Positions 42,067 through 62,151 of a DNA stretch of 64,000 nt are shown here, in pieces. Below the pieces are notes generated by a model. It searched no databases. It was not told where the DNA came from and worked only from the letters and a program-made list of their open reading frames with translations. Each line of letters opens with the position of its first letter. The stretch's first letter is position 1. Location of the stretch: the NCBI GenBank assembly GCA_008632985.1, contig QPGO01000077.1:310001-374000 (forward strand), in the 5' to 3' direction. The position numbers were made by a program, and so were the translations under genes. Source of the stretch: Psammoneis japonica (lineage: Eukaryota).

Positions 42067-45000
42067 TTACGTGACCAGTTTGCTGACCGACTTACCTCTC
42101 TTTCGACGATATGTCGTCGTTGTAGGACCCGGCGGGCATCGCAGCGTGTTCTCGACTAGACTCTGACCTGCCGAGCCTGTAATAGTGTTGGCATCTGATT
42201 CAAACTCTACAGTCAGAGTATCTTCCAAATGCCTGTTTTGAAGCATGGTTTCTTGCCCCTTGGAGCTGCCCGTGTTTGCGTCAATCGATTGAAGTGGGAT
42301 ACTTGGCGTCATAGTTTTGCCTGCCTTCGTTTTCAGCGTATGGCGTGAGCTTGACGCTTCTGGAAGCTGAATGTGAGGTGGAAAAGCATTCTCGTCCTGC
42401 AGGTGTTCAAGAGGGACAGTGATGCACGGAGCGTTTGCGGAAGTCTTATCACTCAACGTCGTTTCCTCCTCAGGGTTGATCAACACGGCGTGATCCGCGG
42501 CGACACTCGACTCATCCTCGTCGCAAAAATCCGTTTCTAAGTAGTGTGATCCGTGAGAAGGAATTCTGTGTTCATTCGAAATCGGTGCTACAGGTTCCCC
42601 AGCTACCGTTCCCGTAATGAAATGGGAATCCCTCATCAACTCGGGAGAAGTATGTCCGTCGCAAACGGCGTAGCGGATTCGAGCATCTTTGCCGTTGATC
42701 TTATTCTCGTGGATCTTCCAGGCTGCAGCGTCCTCGACTGTCAACGCGAATTCTCTCTCGTTAAAAGCAGTTGATGACACTCGTCGCATACGAGCTTCCC
42801 ACGCACACTCCCATCGCTCAAGTATTGTGTTGACATGAGGAACTACGTCACCAGGGCTTCCAGAAAGGCTACAAAGGCACGTGACAACTTCGTCGGTCAA
42901 TCGATATCCATTCAACTCACTTACTTCACACCAAATCGCATGGACAAGATATCTTGCTCTGGTAAAGGTCGAGTCGCGGCGATCGGGAGGGAGCTGTTGG
43001 GAAGCGGCAGGAGGCTCTTGGGTTGTTGATAGGGATGGTAGAAATCGAGAAGTACTTAGCCCCGGAACATTATTCGATGCAAGGGGTATTTCAAAGAGGC
43101 TTTCCGAATCATTCGAAACTTCTGGTTGATGTCTCCGGTGTATCACGGGTGAATGCGGTCTGTTTTTCCAGGCCAGAGCGTCAGCTGCATTTAGTTTCTC
43201 ACCACTCGAGTTGCCAGATGCAATCCGAGATCCACACGCAACAAGAGCAACTTCCCACCTCCGGCGTATAACTGATTCGTCTGGGATGGTAGCATCGAAA
43301 TTTCCAGATAGTTCGCACAGATTCTGAACAACTGCATCTGGCAATCCATGTCCTCGATACTTTGGAACCCCGTTCCAAAGTTTTTCAACAATGGGCTTCG
43401 CCTCTGCGGTGATACGTTGGAGGCGGATTGCCTCGTTCGCACTGGCCATTGATGGATCCGCAGCCTCTTGCCACCGCGCAGCGTTCGAATTGCTCTCCAC
43501 GGATGAATCTTTCGATGTTCTATACAAAGGATCAGAAGTCAAACTTGCAGCGTCAGATTGCAACGGTTCGACGTGAGACCCATTTATTTCCTTCTTCCAG
43601 GCTTTAGCATCCTCTGACGTTATCATGAGGCCCCTCCGTTTCTTACATGCTGCCAGCGCAAGATTCCATCTGTGACGTATAACGGATTCGTTGGGGATTC
43701 TAGCTTGTTGCGTTCGAGACAGATCGCACAGAATTTGCACGACATTATGTGGCAATTTACGTCCGTGACAGTTTGGATTTTCATCCCAAAGTTTTTGAAC
43801 TTGGGGCTTCGCCTCTGCGGTGATGCATTGGAGGCGGATTGCCTCGTGAGATCCGTTTGTTTCCTTCTTCCACGCTAGAGCATCCTCTGACGTTATCACG
43901 AAACCCCTACGTTTCTTACATGCTGCCAGCGCCAGATTCCATCTGTGGCGTATCACGGATTCGTTGGGGATTCTAGCTTGTTGTGTTCGAGAAAGATCGC
44001 ACAGATTCCGCACGACTTTATGCGGCAATTTACGACCACGACAGTTTGGATTTTCATCCCAAAATTTTTGAACTCGGGGCATCGCCTCTTCCGTGATGCG
44101 TTGGAGGCGAGCACGGTATCCCTCATCTGCTGATTCTTTCTTTCCCAAGAAAGCGACGCCGTGCGTTGCACACGACTGATCATTAGATGGCTCCCGGGTC
44201 AGATCCCCTTCGCCCATGGAAGTGGGATGCGGTGCGGCTTGTTCCCGATACAATGTACCAAGTGGCGAATCTGCCAATGCTGCACAAAGCTCAGTAGTCG
44301 ACGTGACGTTGGTCTCTGCTTTCCGTCCAGTCGCGTCCTCTAGTGATACTTCCAGGGTCCGTGGTTTGAATTGACCAGATTCAGCCCGTCTTTTCTGTCC
44401 TGTTCGGCATACGTTCGCCTCTGTCCTCCATGCTGGAGCTTCTTTTGATGACACTTTCACGGTGCATGGTTTGACACCCGTCTTTTGCATGCTGCTGCCA
44501 CTCTCCATCTGTGACAAAACTAGTTCGTCGGGGATTTCAGCGTTGAGTGCTCCAGTCAGACCACACAGATGCTGCACGTCTTGATTAGATAATGGCTGTG
44601 ATGGAAATTCTGCTTGAGGAGATAGCTTTGGAGTAGTATTCGCCTCGTTCGTGCCAGCGACGGAAGGATCCATCGCATCTTCAGAAAGCAACCCAGACGA
44701 AAAATCGTTCGTATTGCTTTTCATCGCTGAATCGTCGAATACTTTAGTTGAATCTGGTTTCTCCGATGTGACGTGTAATCGATGTCGTTTCGTTTCGCTG
44801 GTAGCGTCAGTTGCTGTTGTCGATGGTTCCGTGGGTGCGTGAGACGCTACGTGAGGATCACTCGTGGAATGATAGGTTGACTTCACGCTGCTGTTATCCC
44901 CATCATGTATTTGCGTTCCAGCATTGCTTTCAACGCAACCCTGCTGCTCCACTGAACAACAAGGGATATCCTGTGTTGTGGATGACTGCGTCGATAGCTC

Positions 45001-45201
45001 CTGCCCCGCTTCGGTCTTGCACGTGGAATTCTGTACAGCTGGATCCATGTTGGCGTCTTGCACTTTTGAACGGTCGTCAAAACGCTCTTCTTTGCTCATC
45101 CTCGACTCTACAATTGATTCCTTTGAAGCTTTCTCTGAAGACGATTGATTACTCGCCACTGGGCCGGTGCCCGCAACCATTTTTGTCCCCGCTCCGCCCA
45201 T
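42067..45201 (-). CDS. Large hypothetical protein with four copies of an ~90-aa internal domain
   Basis: 1044-aa ORF; repeats RLQxITxEAxP...W...L...VV..LCxLS...IPxESVIRxRW..AL.AC...DAxAWK. Confidence 0.7.
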   Translation of the reverse strand: MGGAGTKMVAGTGPVASNQSSSEKASKESIVESRMSKEERFDDRSKVQDANMDPAVQNSTCKTEAGQELSTQSSTTQDIPCCSVEQQGCVESNAGTQIHDGDNSSVKSTYHSTSDPHVASHAPTEPSTTATDATSETKRHRLHVTSEKPDSTKVFDDSAMKSNTNDFSSGLLSEDAMDPSVAGTNEANTTPKLSPQAEFPSQPLSNQDVQHLCGLTGALNAEIPDELVLSQMESGSSMQKTGVKPCTVKVSSKEAPAWRTEANVCRTGQKRRAESGQFKPRTLEVSLEDATGRKAETNVTSTTELCAALADSPLGTLYREQAAPHPTSMGEGDLTREPSNDQSCATHGVAFLGKKESADEGYRARLQRITEEAMPRVQKFWDENPNCRGRKLPHKVVRNLCDLSRTQQARIPNESVIRHRWNLALAACKKRRGFVITSEDALAWKKETNGSHEAIRLQCITAEAKPQVQKLWDENPNCHGRKLPHNVVQILCDLSRTQQARIPNESVIRHRWNLALAACKKRRGLMITSEDAKAWKKEINGSHVEPLQSDAASLTSDPLYRTSKDSSVESNSNAARWQEAADPSMASANEAIRLQRITAEAKPIVEKLWNGVPKYRGHGLPDAVVQNLCELSGNFDATIPDESVIRRRWEVALVACGSRIASGNSSGEKLNAADALAWKNRPHSPVIHRRHQPEVSNDSESLFEIPLASNNVPGLSTSRFLPSLSTTQEPPAASQQLPPDRRDSTFTRARYLVHAIWCEVSELNGYRLTDEVVTCLCSLSGSPGDVVPHVNTILERWECAWEARMRRVSSTAFNEREFALTVEDAAAWKIHENKINGKDARIRYAVCDGHTSPELMRDSHFITGTVAGEPVAPISNEHRIPSHGSHYLETDFCDEDESSVAADHAVLINPEEETTLSDKTSANAPCITVPLEHLQDENAFPPHIQLPEASSSRHTLKTKAGKTMTPSIPLQSIDANTGSSKGQETMLQNRHLEDTLTVEFESDANTITGSAGQSLVENTLRCPPGPTTTTYRRKRGKSVSKLVT

Positions 45202-46039
45202 TATTGTTGGTCATGGTGTCGAAAGAAAAATTATATGGTATGTTATCACATCGCGGCGCGGGAAAATAAGACGATGACGTCATGTCGACGTCATTTCTTC
45301 TACTCGCACCGTCCGTCCGCCACACCACACCAATTGTCGTCCGATGATACCGTACCGTTACACCCAAAATTCTACCCAAGTAGTATTTTTCTACTGGAAA
45401 GTGGAATTCTCGTATGTAGAACTGTCAATACGGTGTTGGTATCTTCTAAAAAGATCTACCGTACATCCACTGTTTATTCCACTCAGGTAGAAGGCACAGT
45501 ACCGGTAGAATTTTCGGAGCCAAAAATTCTACCCTGCGCGCCCCTTTCGCGCGATCTAAACCGTCTGTCCTTAGTGAGGTCGGGTGCGACGGTATGAACA
45601 AAAAAATACTGAAAGTTCTAGTACTCGTCTCAATGCGGCATCTCAACCATGAGCGTCGCCGAGTACAACCCCAGCAAATGTGCCAATGCCAACTTCATAT
45701 ATTTTGGCATGGAAAGCAGCACTCACAGGTGTCCTGAGTAGAGCCTAAACATTCGTGCTACTTGTGGCGAAAACAGACGGATGACTTGCACCACTTCTAA
45801 CTTTGACAAGCTCTAAAGCACCTATTTGAGATTGTTATTGTGAGTTCTATGTTTAAATGGTACTAAACAATTGCATTAGACAAAAGAATTGTCAGCATCT
45901 CATCGCACTTCCGCCAGCTTGACAAGAAAACAAGCTGCTCCCCAGCGCTGAATGCACGACCAAAGGTTGCAACCGTTGACATTTCTAGATTGTTCCACAT
46001 CCCCGGCTTGAGATGCATTTTTTAATAACTATTTGGTCC

Positions 46040-47901: not shown

Positions 47902-48449
47902 ATGGACAATCTCGCACCAGCGCAACTCGACCCGAGCGAAATCCCGGAAGGATTTACCGCGGCTTCAGCGGGAGGCGATAATGAAAAGCAGGCCGAGACA
48001 CAGAGCCGTGAAGCACAAAAGCAAGCCATCTTGGAACAAGCTCTTACACCGGAGGCTCTTGAAAGGCTAAGACGAATCAAGGTGAGTCTGGTGGCTATTG
48101 CAAAACAAGTATCTGTGTCGCATCGCGTGTTGTGTATGTAATGTGATGCTTGTCAGCATATTCAATATTTTTGTAAGTCACCTCACGAAGCGACGTATTG
48201 TTTGTGATTTCCCTCTTGTCTTTTGCTAAGCTCGTGAAAGTCGACAAAGCAAACAAAATCGAATCCATGATTGTAGCAATGGCCATGCAGGGAAAGCTAC
48301 CAGGGAGAATCAACGAGGGAAAATTAATTGAAATGTTGGAGGGATTGGGAGCCCAGCAGGGTGCAACTGGTGAAAACAAAATATCGATTCAACGAAAGAA
48401 ATACGCATTCGATTCCGACGACGATGATGATGACGACGATTTGCTGTAA
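47902..48449 (+). CDS. PDCD5: Programmed cell death protein 5 homologue, two exons
   Basis: ILEQALTPEALERLRRIK|LVKVDKANKIE...LIEML...ISIQRK..DSDDD; intron 48082-48230. Confidence 0.9.
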
Positions 48450-48669
48450 GCTGCCGGAAACAACTCGCTTTCTGCAACCGCGCAGCGGAAGAATGAGGCT
48501 TTTGTCTAGCACGAGTGTGTTATCAAATATGCATTGGAAAAAGTATTCAAATTTTCGTTTGTTCCTTCATCTCTTTTTCTGCAATGATGGCATTAATATC
48601 TTAGCTTCTTTAGGTTGTTTTCGGGACGCACTCCGGCTTGCACTTTGTATGCCTGCTTGGTCATTACAG

Positions 48670-49350
48670 TTACACCGCTGCATTGGCGCTCACCGGTTCG
48701 ACGCGAAGTTGACCTACGGGAATTTCCTCGTAGATATCAACAGTTGCTCCGCCAAATGGATCTGCTTTGACAGTCTCCATTTCCCGTACATTCAGAGTTG
48801 CTCCCTTCAATGACACTTCTCCGCTGTCCTTGTCACGAACATGAGTTATTTGAGCGAACAGTTTAAGCGGCTTTACGGAATCGTTATCTTCCCCAGGAAG
48901 TGCAACACTGCCGGTTTCCAGCTGGAGTAGCATATATGGGTAGAGAGGTTCCTGGAATAGCCCCCAAATCCACAGCCCGTCCTTGCGGTCTTCTGGATCT
49001 TCTGACAGTTTCCAAAACCCGTTTGTGATTGTCAGCGTTTTTGAAGCGCCACTTTCGCCAGTTTGATCAGCAGCCACCTGACGCACATTGCCTTGTGGTG
49101 GTTCGTAACCTTCGTCTTCCAAAAACTGGGCTTCCACAACAAAGAGCTGGTCGACCTTTTTACCGAGTTCTGTTGGGATACCATTCAACGAAAAGGAGAG
49201 TTTCCAGGTAGTCTCGTCCGTCAGCGTAGCCTTGGCCGATAAAGGTGTTGTCGAGAAGGCTCTAGACTGCGTGGGAACTTGCGGAGTGGTAAACCCATAT
49301 ACTGAGCTTGCTGTCGACAGCACCAACAGAATGACGAGAAACGATAGCAT
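48670..49350 (-). CDS. Hypothetical protein, probably plastid-targeted
   Basis: Signal peptide ending ASSVYG-F followed by a Thr/Ser-rich transit-like peptide; LSEDPEDRKDGLWIWGLFQEPLYP block. Confidence 0.7.
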   Translation of the reverse strand: MLSFLVILLVLSTASSVYGFTTPQVPTQSRAFSTTPLSAKATLTDETTWKLSFSLNGIPTELGKKVDQLFVVEAQFLEDEGYEPPQGNVRQVAADQTGESGASKTLTITNGFWKLSEDPEDRKDGLWIWGLFQEPLYPYMLLQLETGSVALPGEDNDSVKPLKLFAQITHVRDKDSGEVSLKGATLNVREMETVKADPFGGATVDIYEEIPVGQLRVEPVSANAAV

Positions 49351-49763
49351 TTGTCTAAAAAGTTCGAGATGCTTTTTCAGACCAGTTGAACACCAAACAA
49401 AACACCGCGTTTCCAAAGCAACCGCTAACGTTTCTGCCAACAGCTGTCGCCGGTTTCCAGTGCTCGCCAATGAGATGTAGGAAATGAAAGTCCTTATTCT
49501 GTAGTTGAACGAATGCGGCAACATAAGAGGTGAGCTGACGAGCGAGCGCGAGTTCAGAGTGATGAAAAGTTGTGAGTCAGTCGCGGGAGAGATGGATGAA
49601 GATAACCCGGAAGGTACGTTACTTTGTCCCCAAGTTGCGTAGAACTTGGTACGTTTCTACCTGGGTCGTGGGTTTTGGTCGCGTGAGTTCGATGATGGCG
49701 GGGCGGGAGTGATGAGTGATGTTGATGTCAAAAAGCAAAACGCGAAGAGGCAGAACAACACAC

Positions 49764-52215
49764 ATGTCAAAACGTGAACATGACAAGGCAGAATACTCAA
49801 CTGCTGTCAGCGCTCACGAGTATGTAGGACTGTCAACTTTCTATGATGAGCACGAATAATATTGAAAAACCAGGTGATCCTCGATTGGGCAGCTTGCTGC
49901 ATGAGGGGCTGAACGGTGACATTGTTTTTGTACTCTGGCCGTGTGATGAGGTATGCTAGAACGTTGCTCCGTTTGATGCGACTTGGTCTACCGTGCATAG
50001 ATCCTAATCATTCATTGTGAATTGCGATGTATTTTATTTACAGGGTGTCAAGCGAAACGGGGGACGACTTGGTGCGGCAGGAGCGCCTGCGAGGTTTCTA
50101 CAGTTTCTTAAAAGCATGGGAACTATCCATAATCCGGAGTATGACATCGATTTGTCATCCATTGAATTGTCGTATTATTTTGTCAACCTAAAAGATCTGG
50201 ATTTTGACAAGGACAAAGGTGCATTGGACAAAGCGCACGATCGTCTAACGGAGATAGTATCCAAAGTGCTCGATTCGGGAGGAGTTCCCTTTTGTATCGG
50301 TGGAGGCAACGACCAATCATTTGCAAACTGGAGAGCTTGAGGCAGTCAGTGGCAAAAGGCTCCCGAATAGGAGTTGTGAACGTCGACGCTCACTTGGATG
50401 TTCGGCCACTTGCCAATGGACAGCCTCATTCGGGTACGCCGTTTCGGCAAATTCTGGACTACGACGCCGCAGCCAGAGACGGGACAACAGTCTTGTGTGA
50501 ATTCGCAGCTCAAGGCAGTCAGTGTAGCAAGGCCATGCGAACTATGTAACTTGCAGGGGAGGCTCGATAATGTGGTTGAGTCAAGTACGAACCGTCGCCA
50601 TGTCCCACTTTAAAGATGTTTTGGCACGCCATCATGCCTCTGGCATAGACCATGAGTTCGTGTCATTCGACTTGGACGCGATCAAAGCTTCTGACTGCCC
50701 CGGTGTCTCGTGCCCATCCAACACCGGTCTCACGGCAGAGGACGCAATAGGAATCATGAGAATGGCGGGGGAGGCAAGGCATGTAAAACTTGTGGACATG
50801 TCGGAAATGAATCCAAAGATTGAGGACTACATTACCCCTCGCCTTGCCGTGCAAATGGCGTATTCTTTTATTCTTGGCTACACGAAGCGCGACCGCGAAT
50901 CAGTTCCTTTGAAAGACCGACACTTGAGCATTCCGCATCGTCGGGCTTTTCGCCTTCGTATTTCCCACCTGAGTCAGTTAGTTTGCGTCGAAGATGTTCA
51001 GAAACAGGGTTTCCGAACGGGCGAGCATATGAGGATACTCAACATTGTCGAGGATGGCACGATTCTTGTGGATCGGAATGGCCGCATTGCTTATGCTGGT
51101 CCAGCCGAGGATGCTCCTGATGTTGACAAGGACGAAGTCGAACAGGAAATTGATGGAGAAGGCAAATCAGCCATACCTGGACTCTGTGATGGACATACAC
51201 ATTCCTGTTGGGCTGGTGATAGAGTGAATGAATTTTCGATGAAGCTAGCGGGCGCCACTTACATGGATATTCACAAGAAAGGCGGGGGCATAGGCTTCAC
51301 TGTCAAACACACCCAACAAACTGACGAAGCGAGCTTGTACACAAGTCTGATAGAGCGACTAGATGACATGAATAAGACTGGTACGACACTTGTGGAATGC
51401 AAAGCGGTTACGGGCTCGATGTTACGACTGAGCTAAAAATGCTGCGAGTAATTGATAAGGCTCATCACAATCTGGGGCACGTAGACGTTGTTGGGAATTT
51501 CTGTGGTGCGCACTCGATTCTACAAGGAATGACGGAGGAAGAAGCCTTGGATTGCGTAATAAACAAAATGATCCCGGCTTTGACTGAGGAGAAGAAACAT
51601 GGTAGAATGGCCTCGACAAGGCTAATTGACGTGTTTGCAGAAGATGGGGTATTTAGCAACTCGTCGACAAAAGCTATTCTCGAAGCTGGAGCACGAATTG
51701 GATTGCTCGGCAATTTTCACGGTGATGAACTCACGTATCAAGCATGCGGCGAACTGGCTGGAAAATTGAGGTGCCGCGCAGTGAGCCACCTAGAGCATGT
51801 CAGCGATGAAGGAATTTCAGCAATGGCAGAAAGCCATACGGCAGCTATACTTCTACCCACTACGGCCTATGTGCTAAGGATGAAGCCACCCCCTGCCCGT
51901 AAACTTATCGACAACGGGGTTCCCGTTGCTCTCGGCTCAGACTTCAATCCAAACGCCCACTGCTCATCCATGGCTCACGTGATGAATCTTGCATGCGTCA
52001 CGATGCATTTGTGTGTTGAAGAAGCCCTTGTTGCCAGCACGCTTAACGCAGCATACTCAATGGGCATGCAAGAGAGTCACGGCAGTTTGGAAGTCGGCAA
52101 GCACGGCGACATTGTACTTGTAAATGCTCGACGATGGGAGCACATCATTTATCAATTCGGTGGCATCCCGCCTTTGTTCGCCGTGATCAAAGACGGAATC
52201 GTAAGACGTTTGTAA
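49764..52215 (+). CDS. Fusion of formimidoylglutamase (HutG, arginase fold) and imidazolonepropionase (HutI/AMDHD1); intron 49951-50043, apparent indel frameshifts
   Basis: Hut[54 protein letters not shown]. Hut[41 protein letters not shown]. Both occur in the single ORF 50570-51436. Start codon uncertain. Confidence 0.88.
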
Positions 52216-52254
52216 ATCCGTGTTATGCTGAGAGTTCTAGTTTACTTTGTGAGA

Positions 52255-55200
52255 TTAAAGGTGCTTCATTGGCATGTTAATGCTGTGCTTTCTCGCCGTT
52301 TCTTCTGCTTCTTCGTACCCAGCATCGACGTGGCGCATGACACCGGTAGCAGGGTCGCCTTGCAAGACTCGTCTCAAGCGCAACTCTGCTTCTTGTGTCC
52401 CATCAGCGACAATAACTTGTCCAGCATGAATAGATTTGCCAATGCCGACCCCACCTCCATGATGTATTGAAACCCAAGTTGCACCATTCACCGAATTTAT
52501 CATGGCATTGAGCAGCGGCCAGTCAGCAATAGCGTCGGAACCGTCCTTCATACTTTCAGTTTCTCTGTTTGGCGAAGCGACAGAGCCGCAATCAAGGTGA
52601 TCTCTCCCTATCACGATCGGTGCTGAGATTTTACCTTGGGCTACAAGTTGGTTGATGCGTACTCCAAACGCTTCTCGTTCGCCCATACCAAGCCAACAGA
52701 TTCGACAAGGAAGCCCTTGGAATTGAACTTTTTCTTGAGCTTGATCAATCCAACGTCGAAGAGGTTCGTCATTAGGAAATAGCTCCTTCACAGCCTCGTC
52801 AGTCACCGCAATATCCCTTGGATCTCCTGATAAAGCAACCCACCGAAAGGGCCCACGACCACGACAGAACTGAGGACGAATGAAGAGGGGTACAAATCCT
52901 TGAAACGAGAAAGCTTTTTCATAGCCACCTGCTTTCGCCTGACCACGAATATTGTTTCCATAGTCAAATACTACGGATCCCTTTTCTTTGAAGCCGACCA
53001 TTGATCTAACTTGCTCCACCATTGACATGATCGACCGCTTTTTGTAGTCCTCGGGGTCGGACTTTCGAAGTCGAAGTGCCTCTGGGTAGCGCATTCCATT
53101 TGGCACGTATCCGTTTAGTTCGTCGTGGGCAGAGGTTTGATCAGTCTAAACAGTTGCCACACGAGGACAGAGTTGAGGGCAATCGTTCCGCAGTAATGCA
53201 TGAGAATCCTCAAAGGATGGGACTTACCACCACGTCGGGGATGATACCTCTTGCAAGTAGCGCGGGGAACACGTCTGCGGCGTTGGCGACAACCCCGACA
53301 GACAAAGGAGTGTTGTTTGCCACTGCCTCTTGACACCACGAAATTGCTTCGTCTAGAGTCTCAGTGAGGCGATCCAAATACCGCGTCCTGATTCTGCGCT
53401 GGGCTCGATCCTTGTCTACTTCGACGCAGAGAGCCACGCCGCCGTTCATAGTGATAGCAAGTGGCTGAGCACCTATGGAATGAATGAATACGAAAATGTT
53501 GAGATCTGCCCGTGAAGAAAAAATGACGACACACAAAACAATTTGTAAGTTAGTCTACGAACCTCCCATTCCCCCGAGCCCTCCTGTGAGTACCAGCCTA
53601 CCAGCGAGAGTTCCATCGTAATGCTGCCTGGCTAATTCTGCAAGAGTCTCAAAGGTCCCCTGAAGAATTCCTTGGCTTCCGATATAAATCCATGAACCAG
53701 CAGTCATTTGGCCATACATGATTAACCCTTTCGCTTCGAGTTCGCGGAAGTAATCCCAGGTCGCCCACGATGGGACAAGGTTGGAGTTTGCTATTAGGAC
53801 TCGTGGAGCATCACGGTGGCTTCGAACGACACCCACCGGCTTTCCAGACTGTACCAATAAAGTTTCATCATCCTCGAGCTCCGTTAGCACCTTTAGGATC
53901 GCGGTCAACGCTTCGTGGTTCCGTGCAGCCTTGCCGGTGCCTCCATACACAACAAGGTGGTCAGGGTCCTCTGCCACATCTGGGTCCAGGTTGTTCAAAA
54001 GCATGCGATACGCAGCCTCTTGTTGCCATCCTTTGCAGTGCATTGTCTTTTTGGGAGCCACCGTCCCGCCATTTATCTCGCTCTGACTTGCGGCATTAAG
54101 AGCGCATTGTACCGTCTTGGAGAGAATCCCGCTTCGCACTAGACGAGCCGCGGCCGCCATGTGCGGTGCCATCTCCACATCTTCTGGAAGAAACGGAATG
54201 TTTGAGCGAACGAGATCATGTGCTGCGGATGTACCTCTCCCCATTTTGGCGTTACTACCAAGCTCTCGACGCCGATACTCGACACCTTGTGCTGCAGCCA
54301 ACAATTCGATTCCCAGAATATTCTCAAGGTTTCGGAGGATACGTCTAGCTTGTCGAACCGAGATGGGACCATTGGACACGTGATCTTCCACGTTTGCTGA
54401 AGTGGGGAGGCTGTCGGCACTAGCAGGGAAACAAAGTGCCTTGTTTTCACTGGCCAGCGCTGCCGAAGTGTACTGTGTAAGCATAAACCCCGAATTCAAG
54501 CCACCCTTTTCTGTCAGAAATGGAGGTAGAATACCATTATTGCTCGCCGGATCGGTAAGGCGATTCAGTCTCCGTTCCGAGATGTTTCCTATTTCAGTCA
54601 TTGCGAGCGAGAGATCATCAAAGGTGAGTGCTAGGGGTTCCCCATGAAAGTTCCCACCGCTCTTGGCAACAGCGGATCCATCGTCTTGGAAAAAGATGAG
54701 CGGGTTGTCCGTAACACTGTTCAATTCAATGCTCAAAATCCGTCTCGCATTTTGAAAGGCGTCAGCACAAGCTCCGTGCACCTGCGGCATGCATCGAAGC
54801 GAGTACGCGTCCTGAGGATCTTCTCCGAGATCGGAACGAACAAACGTGGATCCTTCCAATAGCGCTCGCAGCTCCCTTGCCGTTTCAATCTGACTCGGGT
54901 GCGGACGAACCTTTTGAATGTCGGGATCAAGGGCTGCCGCGGTTCCGTATAACGCCTCCAACGACAACGCACCGGTAATGTTGGCCACGTGCGCACAATT
55001 CTCGGCTTCCACAATCGCTAAGCACCCCAACGCTGCCATCATGGCTGTACCGTTTGTCAATGCCAAACCTTCTTTTGCTTCCAACTCAACTGGTTTTAAT
55101 TCTACTTTTGCCAATGCCTCGGCGCCAGCAAGGACTTTTCCGTCAACCACAGCTTTTCCTTCACCAATCATGACCAGCGACATGTGAGCCAACGGAGCAA

Positions 55201-55648
55201 GGTCGCCACTCGCACCCAATGATCCTTGTCGGGGCACAATGGGATGAACCCTCCGTTCAATCATGTTTAGCAATAGTTCAAGAGTTGTCAGTCGTATACC
55301 AGAATACCCCGAAGCCAACGTGTTTGCCCGAATGAGCATCATGGCACGAACGGCGTCGGCTTCGAGAGGCTTGCCAACTCCGGCAGCATGAGATCGAACA
55401 ATGTTGCGTTGCAATTCTTTCAAATCAGCCTTTTCGATCAAGGTCTTTCGGAATGCTCCAAATCCTGTAGTGACACCATAGACCGTCTTGTTTTCGTTTA
55501 CCATTTCTTGTACGGCCTCTGCACTCTTGTTGACCGCCTCAATCGCATCTCTTGACAGTCGCAACTTTACCGTCTCTTGTTCTGCTTTTGCAATCGCCAC
55601 CACATTTTCAATTGTCAGTTGATGTCCATCAATTGTTAGTTCCAACAT
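52255..55648 (-). CDS. Fusion of histidine ammonia-lyase (HutH) and urocanate hydratase (HutU), three exons
   Basis: [32 protein letters not shown] (MIO), [15 protein letters not shown]. In frame with Hut[80 protein letters not shown]. Introns 53473-53562 and 53146-53227 splice in frame. Confidence 0.93.
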
Positions 55649-56053
55649 TTTCTATTGTTTGATTGGAAGAAATGGGACTTGATGTGATGATGGCGGTGTC
55701 AGAATTTTTTGTCATTTTGGATTTTGCGACCCCAAAAAAAAATGAGAAGCGAATGCTCACGGATGACGGGCAGAACAGAGAGTTTCGGTGGTGTTCCCAA
55801 ATTGTTTCCACGTTTGAGATTCCGGATTCCGATGAAAAGCTGAGGCAATGACGTGTTGAGTACTACAAAAAACGTATGATCTACATACGAGTTTCGCTGG
55901 TACTGATACCACGTAGCATCCGCCCACTTTTGGCCTCTTTCCAGCGCCTTCGACAAAGACAGAGCGTTTCACGGCCGTGCCGTTCTTGTGTTTTGTTTGG
56001 GCAATTGTTTTGATTTGTGAGCGAGCCAACGACGCCCGAGATTGACATCCATC

Positions 56054-59000
56054 ATGTCGAACGAAGTGGTAGAGAATGGTAAACAAAACGGAGAAGCAGC
56101 GGCGGCGGTTCAGCCAATACTAGGCATGGAGGGAACTCCCGCTGAAGCTCCTGCTCAGTCAAAACCCAAACCTACTTTTGCTCGTTCCGACACAGCAGAC
56201 ACGTTGGAATCTTCGGAAGATGTGGACGAAGAAGAAGCGCTGCTTGTTTCCATCGAAAAGCAACAGGAAAAAGAAGACGCAGAGGAAGCGGCACACCCAC
56301 ACCCTCAACCCAAAGACATTGCATCTGCACCGAAATTGCTGCAGGACATGCTGAAAAAGGGAGAAGTAAAGGCGGACGAGTCAGAAGAAGAGTCAGAAAA
56401 GGAAGAGAAAGCGTCGAAAGAGGCCGCAGTAGCGAAAAAAGGAACTGAAGAAGAGAAAAAGGGCGAGGAAGGGGAGGCACCTCCGTCTCCCGTGCGACAC
56501 TACCATACGAGGGTAGGTGGTATCTTTTGTCATTGTTTTGGATCCATATGTCGTGCTCGAAAGGTTGCAGTGCTTTGTTTGGTGCTGTATTGTGCTCAGA
56601 CAGGTCTTAATGAGACAAGTTGAGGGTATACAGTGAGAATGTCGAAGAAGCGGTTCTCCTGCGCTGTTTTTCGATTTTCCCGCTTTTTTTTGTTCCCTCA
56701 CGTCTCGCCCACGCGTCTTTCTTACGATTTTTAAATTTCCCTCTTGTACACAGAGAAGTCAACTGGACGAGCTACTCAAAAAGGCTTCTCAGTACTCTGG
56801 TTTCATCTCCAGAGACTTGGAAGAGCTTCAAGAGTCCTTGACGCAAACCGCAAAGAAAAAAGTAAAGTCAGCCGAAAAGAGCAGAAAGCGCAAGGCAAAG
56901 GCCGGGGGCTCTTCCAAGAAGAAATCGAAAAAGAATGACGGTGAGGCTGCTCTCAAGTCTGCGCAAGAGAAGCACGCCTCCGAAATGCTTCATGCAGGTT
57001 CGAAACCGATCTTTGTCCAGCCACCCAACTTGGCTGCCGGCTGTGTCCTCAAGGACTATCAGCTGGAGGGTGTGCGCTGGCTCACCTCCTTGTTTGAGAA
57101 CGGCGTATCTGGTATCCTTGCGGATGAAATGGGACTCGGTAAGAGAAGTTGGCCCAATTTCACCTACAGCGGATATTATTGTTTTGCGCAAGAGTGAATG
57201 AGTTGCTAACAAACGTCTCTTTTCTGTTCCACTACTGCTGCTATTTTTCATTAGGAAAAACTATCCAGGTTATTGCATTGATTGCGCATCTCTTGACCAA
57301 GAACGTTGCGGGGCCGTTTCTCATTGTTGCTCCTCTTGCTACCCTTCCTAATTGGGTGCGCGAGTTCCAGAAATGGCTTCCGCAGAGACCCGTTCTACGC
57401 TATCACGGCAGTGCTACCGACCGCGATGCTATGCTCAAGGGCATGATGCATCCAAAGCAACGAAAGCTCCCGACCTTTCCCTTTATTGTGACCTCGTACG
57501 AAGTAGCCATTCGAGATCAGTCCAAGCTGGAAAAGTTGAACGAATACACCTATCTCATTGTCGACGAAGGGCAGCGCCTCAAGAATCACCGTTGTACGCT
57601 GCTTGCGTCGCTAAAGCGGCTCAAGGCGAATAACCGTTTGTTGCTCAGCGGAACCCCCATCCAGAACAACTTGGACGAATTGTGGAGTCTTCTCAACTTT
57701 GTAAATCCCGATATCTTTGACGACCTTAAGGTTTTCCAGAGTTGGTTTGGTTTCAAGGATATTGGACAGATTGACAAGGGAGGTACTAAAGAAGAGGCAA
57801 TCATGATGGAACAGCGCAAGAACGACACTGTCTCCAAGCTTCACGAGATTCTTCGTCCGTTCCTTCTACGACGCATCAAGAGCAATGTGCTCTCCGAGTT
57901 GCCTCCAAAGAAGGAGGTTGTGGTTTACTCGGGCATGTCCAAGTTGCAGTCCGGGTATGCGGATCTTATTGAGAAGGGTGTTCTGAGGGATACCCTCATT
58001 AGCCAAGGTATCGAACAGGGTCGTACATTGAGCCAGACAAACAAGCAGATGAATCACCGCAAGAATGTCAACCACCCCTTTTTGTTCGGAGAACCCATTG
58101 ACCCGGCCACTGGAGCGCACCTTGGAACCGCCCACCCGCAGCTTCTCGTCCGTGCCAGCGGCAAGTTTGCTCTGCTTGATCGAATGCTTGATCGGTTGCA
58201 CCGTGACAAGCACCAAGTTCTTATCTTCAGCCAAATGACATCGCTGCTGAATGTAATTGAAGACTACTTGCTCTATAGGAAGTGGAGGTACTGCCGCATT
58301 GACGGTTCAACCAACATTGATGACCGTCAGAGTCAGATGGACAGGTTTAACGCGGAGCAGACGGCAGGCAAGGACGGAACTAGGAATGATAGCGATGACC
58401 GCTGTTTTGTGTTTTTGCTCAGCACCAGGGCTGGTGGTCTCGGAATCAACTTGGTAAGTCATCATGGTTGGGAGCTTTATGCATTCAGCTGCTCTAGAAT
58501 GGAGAGTCTCTCACCTCGTTACCATATGTCTGTTGACTGAAGGCAACGGCCGATACGTGCATCATTTTTGATAGGTACGTCGAGATTGTACAGTACTCCA
58601 TTGACAGTTGACCAGACGTTTTCTTGTTCTCTCAACTCTTTCTATTGTTGTCCTTTCTTCTTCCTGCGACAGCGACTGGAATCCGCACCAGGATTCGCAG
58701 GCAATGGACAGGTGCCATCGAATTGGCCAGACTCGCCCAGTTGCAGTGTATCGCCTACTCACAGCGGGTTCTGTCGACATTGAAATGATGGAGAAGCAGA
58801 TCTCGAAAAAGAAGCTCGAGCGCATGACCATCACGGGAGGCGACTTTAGAAAGGCAGGCAGCCGCTCGGTTGGAGAAAAGATCTCGTCCAACGAGCTGAA
58901 CAAGCTCTTGGAAGACGATATTAAGGATATTCACGCCAAGGGGGCGGATATTGAAAGTATCAAGATCAACGAAGACGAGTTCGATATGATTATGGATCGT

Positions 59001-59196: not shown

Positions 59197-59878
59197 AAGA
59201 GACAGTGGACGACTCTCACCGACCACGATACAAGTAAAGTAGACTTATGGTATTTTGATCCTTTTGCTTGCACGAATTGTGATCAGTATAGAATATCTAG
59301 CTGTGCAACACTAAAATTGACTATCAAAGTTCTTCATTCGAATACACAGCACCTCCCCCGTTCGTTCCCTCTGGAGGATGGCTTATGAGCAGTTCATCAT
59401 ACGTCCCTTGTCGTGCATCTTCCGTCTCTTCAATCGTTACATGATCTGGCTCGTGCCCGTTCAAGTACCTGCTCCAAACAAGCTCGAGTCCAGTCTGAAA
59501 GTTCTTGACATATCGCGGAACGTCCCAATAGGGGTGCAAGAGACAGTGGACGACTCTCACCGACCACGATACAAGTAAAGTAGACTTATGGTATTTTGAT
59601 CCTTTTGCTTGCACGAATTGTGATCAGTATAGAATATCTAGCTGTGCAACACTAAAATTGACTATCAAAGTTCTTCATTCGAATACACAGCACCTCCCCC
59701 GTTCGTTCCCTCTGGAGGATGGCTTATGAGCAGTTCATCATACGTCCCTTGTCGTGCATCTTCCGTCTCTTCAATCGTTACATGATCTGGCTCGTGCCCG
59801 TTCAAGTACCTGCTCCAAACAAGCTCGAGTCCAGTCTGAAAGTTCTTGACATATCGCGGAACGTCCCAATAGGGGTGC
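59197..59878. repeat. Perfect 341-bp tandem duplication of the GT41 gene 3' end and downstream region
   Basis: 59197-59537 appears identical to 59538-59878. Confidence 0.93.
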
Positions 59879-62151
59879 ATGGGGTTTCGCTGTAGACACG
59901 AGTCGATGAGTTTCTTTCGGATTGACTCGAGCATGGTTGCATTCTTCCCGAGAGCAATGGCAATGTCTTCGTATTGTTGTGGTCCATTGTACGCATTCAA
60001 TTCTTCAAGTCCCAAAACCATGTTGGACGACGTTGTGACACGAGAGCACATGTCATCACCGTCACTACGAGTCACAATGGGCACACCGGCATACAAGGAA
60101 TCTTGAGCGACAGTGTGGCCATTGTATGGGTACGAGTCGAGCATGACATTGCAAAAGTCGTGATTCCTCATTTGATGGTCAAATGGGTTTCGTTGCCACG
60201 GGAGAAAATGTATGCGAGAATTCAATTCGTTTCCGTCTCCTTCCACAAAGCTGTCTTCATCGTTATTGTTTTCGGACGTACCCGCAGCCTCGTGAATAAA
60301 TTTGCGGAGATATGGTACGCCCTCTTTGGGATTTTCCAAGAGACAAATCATGCTGTCGGGAACTTCTCTCAGGATTCGAATCCAACTCCGGACAGTTTCA
60401 GGATTATTCTTGAGGAACTTGTTGAAATTGCAGTAGACAATGGATGGCTTCTCGGGACCCACCCCTGGCTTTGCCATGCATCGATTCGCTTGTGGACTGC
60501 CAGTCCCCAACTTGTACGGAGTCTCTGCTGGGGTATAGTCAAAAGTCGGTGCTTTCACCTCGTCCTGAATAGCGTGGCCTTTTGAAAAAAAGTGATTCGG
60601 CATGTAGATAAACTTCTCCGTGTACAAGTTCTCTAGTTCTGGAGGAGACGCAATCTTGTCTGTAAAAATGTAATCCAGATACTGAGCACCATAAGTGCCG
60701 AGAAACTCTTGGTGCAAGATTTGTATAGGCGCCGGTCGCAGAGCAAACAGTCCCTGCGCTCGCTCACCCTGACGAGCATAGCCATCCCATTCAATCAAAA
60801 TGTGGATCCCAGTATCGTGGATCCTTCGTGCCAAGGCCACATGATCAAGCTTGAGTTTTTGCACATCGTGAAAGTAGTCCACGTTGGACTTGACTCGCTC
60901 TCTCCAATCCACTCCCCGCATTCCGTGTTGAATAAACACGGGCGAATCGGCTGGACCCATGGAGAAAATATGAACCTCATACTTGTTCTTGTCAAAAAAT
61001 CGAAACATGTCGTGCGACAAGTACAAGACCGCCTTGGAATTAAAGCCGGATGCGACAAAACCAATCTTGAGCTTAAAGTCGGGCTTTTGCGCCTCACGAA
61101 AGAATCGTTTGAAATCCGCGTCATTGTCATTGCCGTAGGGAAGTCCAGGTGGCAGGGGCTTTAATTTCATGGTTTCCTGATCGATTCTGGCCAGCTTTTC
61201 ATCCAGATACGCCGTACCCTCGGTTACGTAACGTTTCAGAATGGATTCAATCGGATAGCCCAGCATCATGTGTGGGTGAGTCGAGGTGCCCCGTTCCCAA
61301 TGAAAGGTGCCTAATTTTTTGTTCACTGTTCGATACTCGGCTACTTCCTCTTTGGCAATTCGTACAATACGCTCCATGTCTTGATCAAACTGTGTCCCGT
61401 TGAAACCCCAATCAATAATCATGGTTCGGCAATAGACAGCATTCGAACACGAGGGATAGAGTTTTTGGCCCGATTTGAGACAACTCAATTCAAACACATC
61501 AGCACAATCTTCGTATTTGCGGTCACTGAAAAATTTGCTTCCCAAGGCGTACAATTCTTCCGGCGTCATGTTTTCAATTTCGCGACTGGCGGACGGCTTG
61601 TTTTTTGATGAGGTTGTTGTGGTTGTTTGACTCGGAGACGCATCTTTCTTTGTAAGTTCGTCAAGACCAAGTGTCTGTTGGAGCAGCAGTGCGTCTGGAT
61701 GATTCGGATCGACAGCCAGAGCTTGTTTCAGATACATTTTACCCATATCCATTTGACCTCTCCCGACACTCTCGGTTGCAACATAGACAAAGGCATCCGC
61801 CATTTTATCCTGAACAGCAAAACACTGAACAAAGGGTTGAAAGGCTTGCTCCACACTGTATGCATTTCCAGATGACGCATGCATCAGAACGGCACGCCAA
61901 TAGTGCATGGCAGCTCTGTCATACTCTTTTAATCCAAAGAGTCGCTGACCCTCTGCGAGATTGGCCTTGCCATCGGTGTTTGGCACGGTCGTTTCAAAAT
62001 TCAATTCCACGACGGAATTGACAGAAGCAAAGATCGAGACACATAGCATAAGAAATATTATTAGTTTTGAATGCAGCCGCCTCTGTGGTTGTCGGCTCAA
62101 GCAAAGCGACGCCATGTCGGAAAGCGGCAAAGGAGACATCCGTCTCATCAT
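59665..62151 (-). CDS. TPR-containing GT41-family (O-GlcNAc/O-fucose transferase-like) protein with N-terminal hydrophobic segment
   Basis: TPR-like helices; LKIGFVASGF, IHILIEWDGY, FALRPAPIQI, YCNFNKFLK, LDSYPYNGHT..DSLYAGVPIVT. Confidence 0.88.
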   Translation of the reverse strand: MMRRMSPLPLSDMASLCLSRQPQRRLHSKLIIFLMLCVSIFASVNSVVELNFETTVPNTDGKANLAEGQRLFGLKEYDRAAMHYWRAVLMHASSGNAYSVEQAFQPFVQCFAVQDKMADAFVYVATESVGRGQMDMGKMYLKQALAVDPNHPDALLLQQTLGLDELTKKDASPSQTTTTTSSKNKPSASREIENMTPEELYALGSKFFSDRKYEDCADVFELSCLKSGQKLYPSCSNAVYCRTMIIDWGFNGTQFDQDMERIVRIAKEEVAEYRTVNKKLGTFHWERGTSTHPHMMLGYPIESILKRYVTEGTAYLDEKLARIDQETMKLKPLPPGLPYGNDNDADFKRFFREAQKPDFKLKIGFVASGFNSKAVLYLSHDMFRFFDKNKYEVHIFSMGPADSPVFIQHGMRGVDWRERVKSNVDYFHDVQKLKLDHVALARRIHDTGIHILIEWDGYARQGERAQGLFALRPAPIQILHQEFLGTYGAQYLDYIFTDKIASPPELENLYTEKFIYMPNHFFSKGHAIQDEVKAPTFDYTPAETPYKLGTGSPQANRCMAKPGVGPEKPSIVYCNFNKFLKNNPETVRSWIRILREVPDSMICLLENPKEGVPYLRKFIHEAAGTSENNNDEDSFVEGDGNELNSRIHFLPWQRNPFDHQMRNHDFCNVMLDSYPYNGHTVAQDSLYAGVPIVTRSDGDDMCSRVTTSSNMVLGLEELNAYNGPQQYEDIAIALGKNATMLESIRKKLIDSCLQRNPMHPYWDVPRYVKNFQTGLELVWSRYLNGHEPDHVTIEETEDARQGTYDELLISHPPEGTNGGGAVYSNEEL

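Follow-up and report, generated by a model that had tools for sequence, protein, structure and literature searches.

We describe a pair of convergent fusion genes for histidine breakdown in the diatom Psammoneis japonica, found within a stretch of 64,000 nucleotides (NCBI GenBank assembly GCA_008632985.1, contig QPGO01000077.1, positions 310,001 to 374,000 of the forward strand; hereafter the window, whose own numbering is used throughout). Judged from the sequence and from assembled sequencing runs, the pair very probably encodes a working and transcribed histidine catabolism of the formamide type, in which two bifunctional proteins (HutH-HutU and HutG-HutI) supply ammonia and glutamate. The hutH-hutU gene lies on the minus strand (55648-52255, two introns, product of 1073 amino acids, aa) and hutG-hutI on the plus strand (49843-52215, one intron, product of 760 aa after frame repair), with 39 nucleotides (nt) between their stop codons. 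As far as protein trees can tell, the cluster is chimeric, since it unites a bacterial HutH and a prokaryote-type HutU with a eukaryote-type HutI, a mixed origin that was absent from the original prediction made from the DNA letters.

Gene models, splicing and assembly errors

The minus-strand open reading frame (ORF) that starts at ATG 55648 runs from a Lyase_aromatic domain (aa 11-481) into a Urocanase_N domain (aa 532-654) without a stop between them, and the 1073-aa protein, ending at 52255, is obtained once introns 53562-53473 and 53227-53146 are taken out (Table 1). On the plus strand, the Arginase and Amidohydro domains share a common frame over the HutG/HutI junction (50528-51433).

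Three runs are listed for one sample, and two of them, X1 and X2, contain the stretch; their Logan contigs (depth 62 and 102, respectively) supplied the read support, and as contigs of one sample they do not allow genes to be ranked by depth. Despite a record reading 'DNA?', X2 was taken as RNA because its contigs skip five GT-AG introns (among them 49951-50043 and 53473-53562). Both fusion junctions are crossed by spliced contigs: contig 11 of X2 is spliced (49743-53146) and holds the complete hutG-hutI together with the last hutU exon, while contig 12, unbroken over 53561-55633, spans the HutH/HutU junction. Intron 53227-53146 is backed by homology and by an X2 contig terminating at 53146; no splice joint for it occurs among the contig pieces listed, two further in-frame donors are possible, and the chosen boundaries are those agreeing with the homologues. 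The 3' ends of the two genes probably overlap, as contig 11 (which is unstranded) suggests. One X1 contig (48000-55633) joins the cluster with a PDCD5-like gene of the host, which is spliced.

The assembled hutG-hutI frame is broken three times by single-base deletions (after 50335, 50532 and 51400). As the X1 and X2 contigs each put back one base at all three sites, giving the 760-aa frame, and as all three lie in homopolymers, we regard the breaks as assembly errors and reject a pseudogene. The original prediction had the fusions ending 39 base pairs (bp) apart, both with spliceosomal introns, which the gene models and splice joints bear out; its start of hutG-hutI at 49764 had to be corrected, given that this ATG begins an ORF of just 31 codons in a different frame and that an intron joining it to the gene is ruled out by a spliced contig unbroken over 49743-49948. 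The conserved frame begins at ATG 49843. Apart from the 31-codon ORF, which overlaps the true start, the leader holds a 15-codon in-frame ORF from 49780, and translational control by these upstream ATGs is possible.

Table 1. Features of the hut cluster in the window
Feature	Position	Strand	Remarks
31-codon upstream ORF	49764..49859	+	out of frame; overlaps the real hutG-hutI start; within the spliced contig starting at 49743
hutG-hutI exon 1	49843..49950	+	start ATG 49843 or 49846; agrees with homologue N-termini
hutG-hutI intron, 93 nt, GT-AG	49951..50043	+	skipped in X2 contig
hutG-hutI exon 2	50044..52215	+	HutG to ~50890, short basic linker, HutI from ~50945
Three 1-base assembly deletions	50335..51400	+	after 50335, 50532 and 51400; homopolymer runs
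Intergenic gap, 39 bp	52216..52254		separates the convergent stop codons; crossed by X2 contig reaching 53146
hutH-hutU exon 3	52255..53145	-	HutU C-terminal half, stop TAA
hutH-hutU intron 2, 82 nt	53146..53227	-	homology; X2 contig end at 53146
hutH-hutU exon 2	53228..53472	-	HutU NAD-binding region
hutH-hutU intron 1, 90 nt	53473..53562	-	within HutU glycine-rich motif; splice joint in X2
hutH-hutU exon 1	53563..55648	-	HutH aa 1-518, ~12-aa linker, HutU N-terminal domain from ~54058

Identity of the four domains

Domain identity was judged by NCBIfam equivalog cut-offs, with some scores taken on the window proteins and some on homologues, and by motifs, all 33 tested patterns being present in the window's Hut proteins. 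HutH of the window scored 639.8 with TIGR01225 (cut-off 539.15), and the TAL, PAL and TAM models stayed under their cut-offs. Its methylidene-imidazolone (MIO) triad is Ala146-Ser147-Gly148, and the active-site set comprises Y57, H87, N199, Q279, Y282, R285, F334 and E421, residues placed by motif (not by direct alignment) against the list for G. kaustophilus HAL, so that all eight active-site residues studied in that enzyme (PMC11432326) have counterparts here. For HutU (TIGR01228, cut-off 375) the homologue P0147 scored 908.7 and exon 3 of the window alone 471.7, with 11 of 11 motifs found in the window. This urocanase is of the short prokaryotic type: it scores 815 bits against 1X87, a bacterial-type enzyme of 551 aa, and 284 against the long T. 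cruzi-type 6UEK (681 aa).

Whole homologues of the HutI domain reached 410-411 with TIGR01224 (P0129 411; cut-off 298), and the window pieces, scored separately, 120 and 276; the HxH, His and Asp motifs, which we take to be metal ligands, are present. By profile, the HutG domain matches T. cruzi formiminoglutamase with 325 bits; the HutG structure that comes second, from V. cholerae, reaches 98. By fold, the T. cruzi enzyme is likewise the nearest solved structure (target-normalised template modelling score 0.90 for a model of the homologue P0121), at 43% identity in the fold alignment (PDB 4MXR/2A0M). As in that enzyme, an Asn replaces a His metal ligand, at the position of the N114H variant (4MYN); this Asn and the DxHLDVR and PGVSCP motifs occur in the window and in 14 of 14 homologue sequences checked. 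By these sequence and fold criteria HutG is a putative T. cruzi-type formiminoglutamase of the Mn type. In the AlphaFold model of P0121, built on a 12-sequence alignment, the HutI half is weak (mean predicted local distance difference score 70, predicted template modelling score (pTM) 0.46).

The original prediction has held for the identities of all four domains, for the pairing of steps 1 and 2 and of steps 3 and 4, for integration into a eukaryotic genome and for the formamide-type last step.

Occurrence in other diatoms

Among named organisms, diatoms have the nearest relatives of the Hut proteins. A search with the HutG/HutI junction returned 13 matches, 12 of which are whole fusions (753-832 aa, 50-76% identical among themselves); of the 150 best-matching out of 1.84 billion representatives, one cluster only matched the whole HutG-HutI. 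With the HutH/HutU exon, the best 12 of 120 listed matches have both domains. Gedaniella sp. CCMP2646 carries the HutH-HutU fusion, and Amphora coffeiformis carries both, as consecutive gene models on scaffold112. Eleven HutG-HutI/HutH-HutU protein pairs from six lineages share an equal-sized longest contig, and 8 of the 11 leave fewer than 900 spare bases. In one species the complete HutH-HutU and the C-terminus of HutI lie on a contig of 4549 nt, and nearly all of HutG-HutI and the C-terminal part of HutH-HutU on one of 4605 nt, which implies the tail-to-tail order there too. The two fusions are thus presumably adjacent in six other lineages.

Non-homologous genes of one pathway stand next to each other and this adjacency is conserved (indirectly so outside the window), as expected of a eukaryotic metabolic cluster. 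The earlier proposal of such a cluster gains support from the 39-bp gap and the adjacency deduced in six lineages and in Amphora. At the site of the HutU glycine-motif intron, three homologues from three lineages (P0009, P0010, P0012) continue into sequence that resembles an intron, so that the position of this intron is apparently common to other lineages. The third-codon-position GC content of the hut genes (0.43-0.53) is close to that of the flanking genes (0.47-0.61), and this host-like codon composition, along with the shared intron site, suggests one old integration.

No model diatom appears among the named matches, although no direct absence test was made, and P. tricornutum is described in PMC4859558 as being without such genes. 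A metagenome contig scan yielded no diatom hut locus among the 80 retained of 443 confirmed.

Ancestry of the four domains

Trees, from which near-identical duplicates and incomplete rows had been removed, were inferred with fasttree or under LG+G4. HutH shares 66-71% identity with unfused proteins, all the named ones among the listed matches being Chloroflexota, and is nested deep inside the Anaerolineae, whose monophyly to the exclusion of diatoms is rejected (approximately unbiased (AU) test, p=1e-4). For HutU, identity to prokaryotic proteins is 69-72%. In three of 401 Anaerolineae genomes (L100, L101 and L102, from G385, G216 and G085, respectively), hutH and hutU share a frame and are separated by a single stop, an arrangement that is, on paper, a ready route to fusion; no bacterial HutH-HutU fusion was found in the protein searches with HutH/HutU or in the 401-genome Anaerolineae scan. 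Contig L095 is arranged likewise, and in all four loci one substitution would suffice for a fusion. The unpublished genome G349 enters only a tally of 300 of the 401 genomes, and none of the conclusions depends on it.

HutI falls into a clade with 100% support in which every named member is a eukaryote (Naegleria, Reticulomyxa, Aduncisulcus, Macrostomum, Toxocara, Nilaparvata). A grouping of the nine rows of this eukaryote clade without diatoms is not rejected (AU p=0.625); diatom HutI may stand beside the clade as its sister instead of within it.

Other HutI and HutG fusions exist. The contigs L041 (1-4653, +) and L047 (1-3051, +), GC-rich and transcript-like, encode in one frame a HutU-HutI-HutG triple fusion (1550 aa, open at the 5' end) with an Asn-type HutG; the HutI domains of both contigs fall among bacterial ones in the tree, and the HutU of L041 is of eukaryote type (913 bits to 6UEK vs 318). 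Since a shared origin of the triple-fusion and diatom HutI is rejected (AU p=4e-6), we consider this fusion independent of the diatom one. Double fusions occur in the order HutI-HutG (P0202, P0208, P0275) and HutG-HutI (P0227, P0250), the named bacterial ones being P0202 (Endozoicomonas cluster) and P0227 (Planctomycetota); they are unrelated to the diatom fusion in trees, where grouping their HutI with it is rejected (AU p=1e-6). The prokaryote-like loci L013-L015 and L025 have the order hutU-hutI-hutG-hutU, with two urocanase paralogues flanking the operon. The plasmid search gave ordinary bacterial hut genes only, among 10 listed of 1035 records.

Proposed function and alternative explanations

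HutH-HutU is predicted to remove ammonia from histidine and to hydrate urocanate to imidazolonepropionate, whereas HutG-HutI would open the ring through its C-terminal HutI and split formiminoglutamate into glutamate and formamide through its N-terminal HutG. Going by the domain identities, the end products would be glutamate, ammonia and formamide, and histidine would be used as a nitrogen (and carbon) source. Release of the formamide nitrogen requires a formamidase. Both fusion proteins would act in the cytosol; no targeting sequence is evident by eye on either. Historically, a single diatom ancestor may have acquired prokaryotic hutH (from Anaerolineae) and hutU and fused both, with introns added later, and the resulting gene would have come to lie tail-to-tail with a fusion of eukaryote-type hutI and T. 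cruzi-type hutG.

Imidazolonepropionate, the intermediate that passes from HutU to HutI, is labile. Channelling is not an obvious reason for the fusions, because precisely this hand-over falls between the two proteins (steps 1+2 and 4+3); fusion and clustering most likely serve co-inheritance and co-expression, a simpler account of the layout than channelling, which needs the two proteins to bind. Such binding, with all four enzymes in one complex that passes imidazolonepropionate from HutU to HutI, is compatible with the proposed pathway and in our view unlikely. HutU and HutI are dimers. HutH is tetrameric (PMC11432326), so the fusions could build large assemblies, and HutU is fused straight to HutI in an unrelated organism (L041, L047). 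In the diatom, however, HutU and HutI sit on separate chains, the linkers are short and variable, and the HutG-HutI model (with the low pTM and shallow alignment given above) lacks confident inter-domain packing.

Diatoms produce ovothiol, and the same proteins might act on a modified histidine (of the ergothioneine, ovothiol or methylhistidine type), given that HutU also matches the thiourocanate hydratase models (671 and 704 bits). These scores lie far under the cut-offs of 930 and 880, whereas the hutU model is passed (909 vs 375); HutH retains the MIO triad, His87 and Glu421 and matches P. putida HAL with 412 bits, as against 226 for ergothionase, and no desulfhydrase or demethylase is found among the scanned ORFs of the window, all of which makes such a substrate very improbable. 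It is likewise improbable that the diatoms acquired an entire bacterial hut operon in a single transfer and that it was then rearranged into two fusions. The in-frame hutH and hutU of the three Anaerolineae genomes and the presence of HutG relatives in prokaryotic hutG-hutU-hutI operons would fit such a transfer, but it is largely refuted for HutI, which groups with eukaryotes at 100% support and whose grouping with other fused HutI is rejected, and such operons encode HutI (29-35%) and HutU (50-57%) proteins that are only distantly similar to those of the window. As for a pseudogene, bacterial contaminant or assembly artefact, the three frameshifts and the closeness of HutH and HutU to proteins of bacteria (66-72% identity) might raise the suspicion; it is scarcely credible in view of the restored bases, the spliced introns, the X1 contig tying the cluster to the PDCD5-like gene and the homologues in named diatoms.

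Several observations weigh against the proposed pathway and its history. HutG homologues (P0129, P0121) remain under the bacterial TIGR01227 cut-off (135-153 vs 229), yet this is still the top-scoring arginase-family model for the domain. X1 and X2 stem from one sample, possibly the same source as the window, and adjacency elsewhere was read from model names and equal contig sizes, not from DNA. The HutH trees contain no eukaryotic HAL; HutU did not group with Anaerolineae HutU, though that grouping is not rejected (AU p=0.51), and in 10 of 10 Anaerolineae genomes that have the nearest HutH, hutU lies on a different contig. The Asn-type clade of HutG mixes contigs that have introns or low gene density with prokaryotic operon members, and because of the latter its descent need not have been vertical.

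Other features of the window

The window is eukaryotic, with intron-bearing SNF2, O-GlcNAc-transferase-like, SdhA, PMI and PDCD5-like genes. Repeat searches in the flanks of the hut cluster gave just short, chance-level matches. The SNF2-family neighbour (55900-57500) shows many allelic differences between contigs and the hut cluster (48000-55633) almost none, which suggests that the latter lies in a low-heterozygosity block. At 59197-59879, the 3' end of the O-GlcNAc-transferase-like gene, there is an exact tandem duplication of ~342 nt (100% identity), either real or an assembly artefact. Two minus-strand ORFs gave no Pfam match: one of 226 aa (48670-49350), divergent from hutG-hutI, covered by an X2 contig and with a signal-peptide-like start, and one of 1047 aa with internal repeats (42067-45210).

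Comparison with known systems and significance

Bacterial hut operons with the formamide branch are typified by hutHUIG of Bacillus and Klebsiella. The diatom locus shares their chemistry and has bacterial counterparts at 66-71% (HutH) and 69-72% (HutU) identity, but where they have separate genes on one strand without introns, it has convergent, intron-bearing fusions. Animals use HAL, UROC1, AMDHD1 and FTCD, encoded by unlinked genes and with a folate-dependent last step. Diatom HutI belongs to the eukaryotic AMDHD1-like clade, whereas the tetrahydrofolate branch (PMC9002059), the unlinked genes and the long-type urocanase set animals apart. The closest parallel in chemistry is T. cruzi, a eukaryote whose four enzymes (TcHAL, TcUH, TcIP, TcFG), including the same Asn-type formiminoglutamase, turn histidine into glutamate with ammonia and formamide (PMC12203737); these are four separately named enzymes with a long urocanase (681 aa), unlike the two fusions and bacterial-type HutU of the diatom. 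Diatom allantoin synthase, a Urah-Urad fusion, is likewise a bacteria-derived bifunctional enzyme for consecutive steps of nitrogen catabolism; according to the preprint (bioRxiv 10.1101/2020.01.24.918219), it belongs to the purine pathway, is one fusion formed in the donor bacterium, is not part of a two-gene cluster and is spread over stramenopiles and haptophytes.

The chemistry is already known, and what may be new is the two-fusion layout and its mixed origin in diatoms. Full-text literature searches (subscription journals not covered) found no paper on a two-fusion, tail-to-tail, mixed-origin hut cluster, consistent with the original statement that the layout is undescribed. The word 'histidine' has 0 occurrences in the main texts of a diatom horizontal gene transfer preprint and of the Seminavis genome paper, whose supplements may list these families.

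Genes for the use of histidine as a nitrogen source were previously not known in diatoms, and the locus represents a testable route: it supplies the histidine-breakdown reactions (cf. Levering et al.) in other diatoms while leaving P. tricornutum itself unexplained, and, consisting of just two genes, it lends itself to transfer into P. tricornutum or to knockout. The locus also illustrates clearly that a eukaryotic metabolic cluster can be put together from parts that were transferred and parts of resident type, with the Anaerolineae as an unusual donor, and bears on the domestication of horizontally acquired genes and on the use of organic nitrogen by diatoms. A bolder and rather doubtful extension is that the chimeric unit forms a single four-enzyme complex co-regulated through the overlapping 3' ends. 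If this were true, the diatom locus and the mirror-image triple fusion would together point to compact units for scavenging histidine having been selected repeatedly in protists, and these diatoms would be an unrecognised sink of dissolved histidine and source of formamide.

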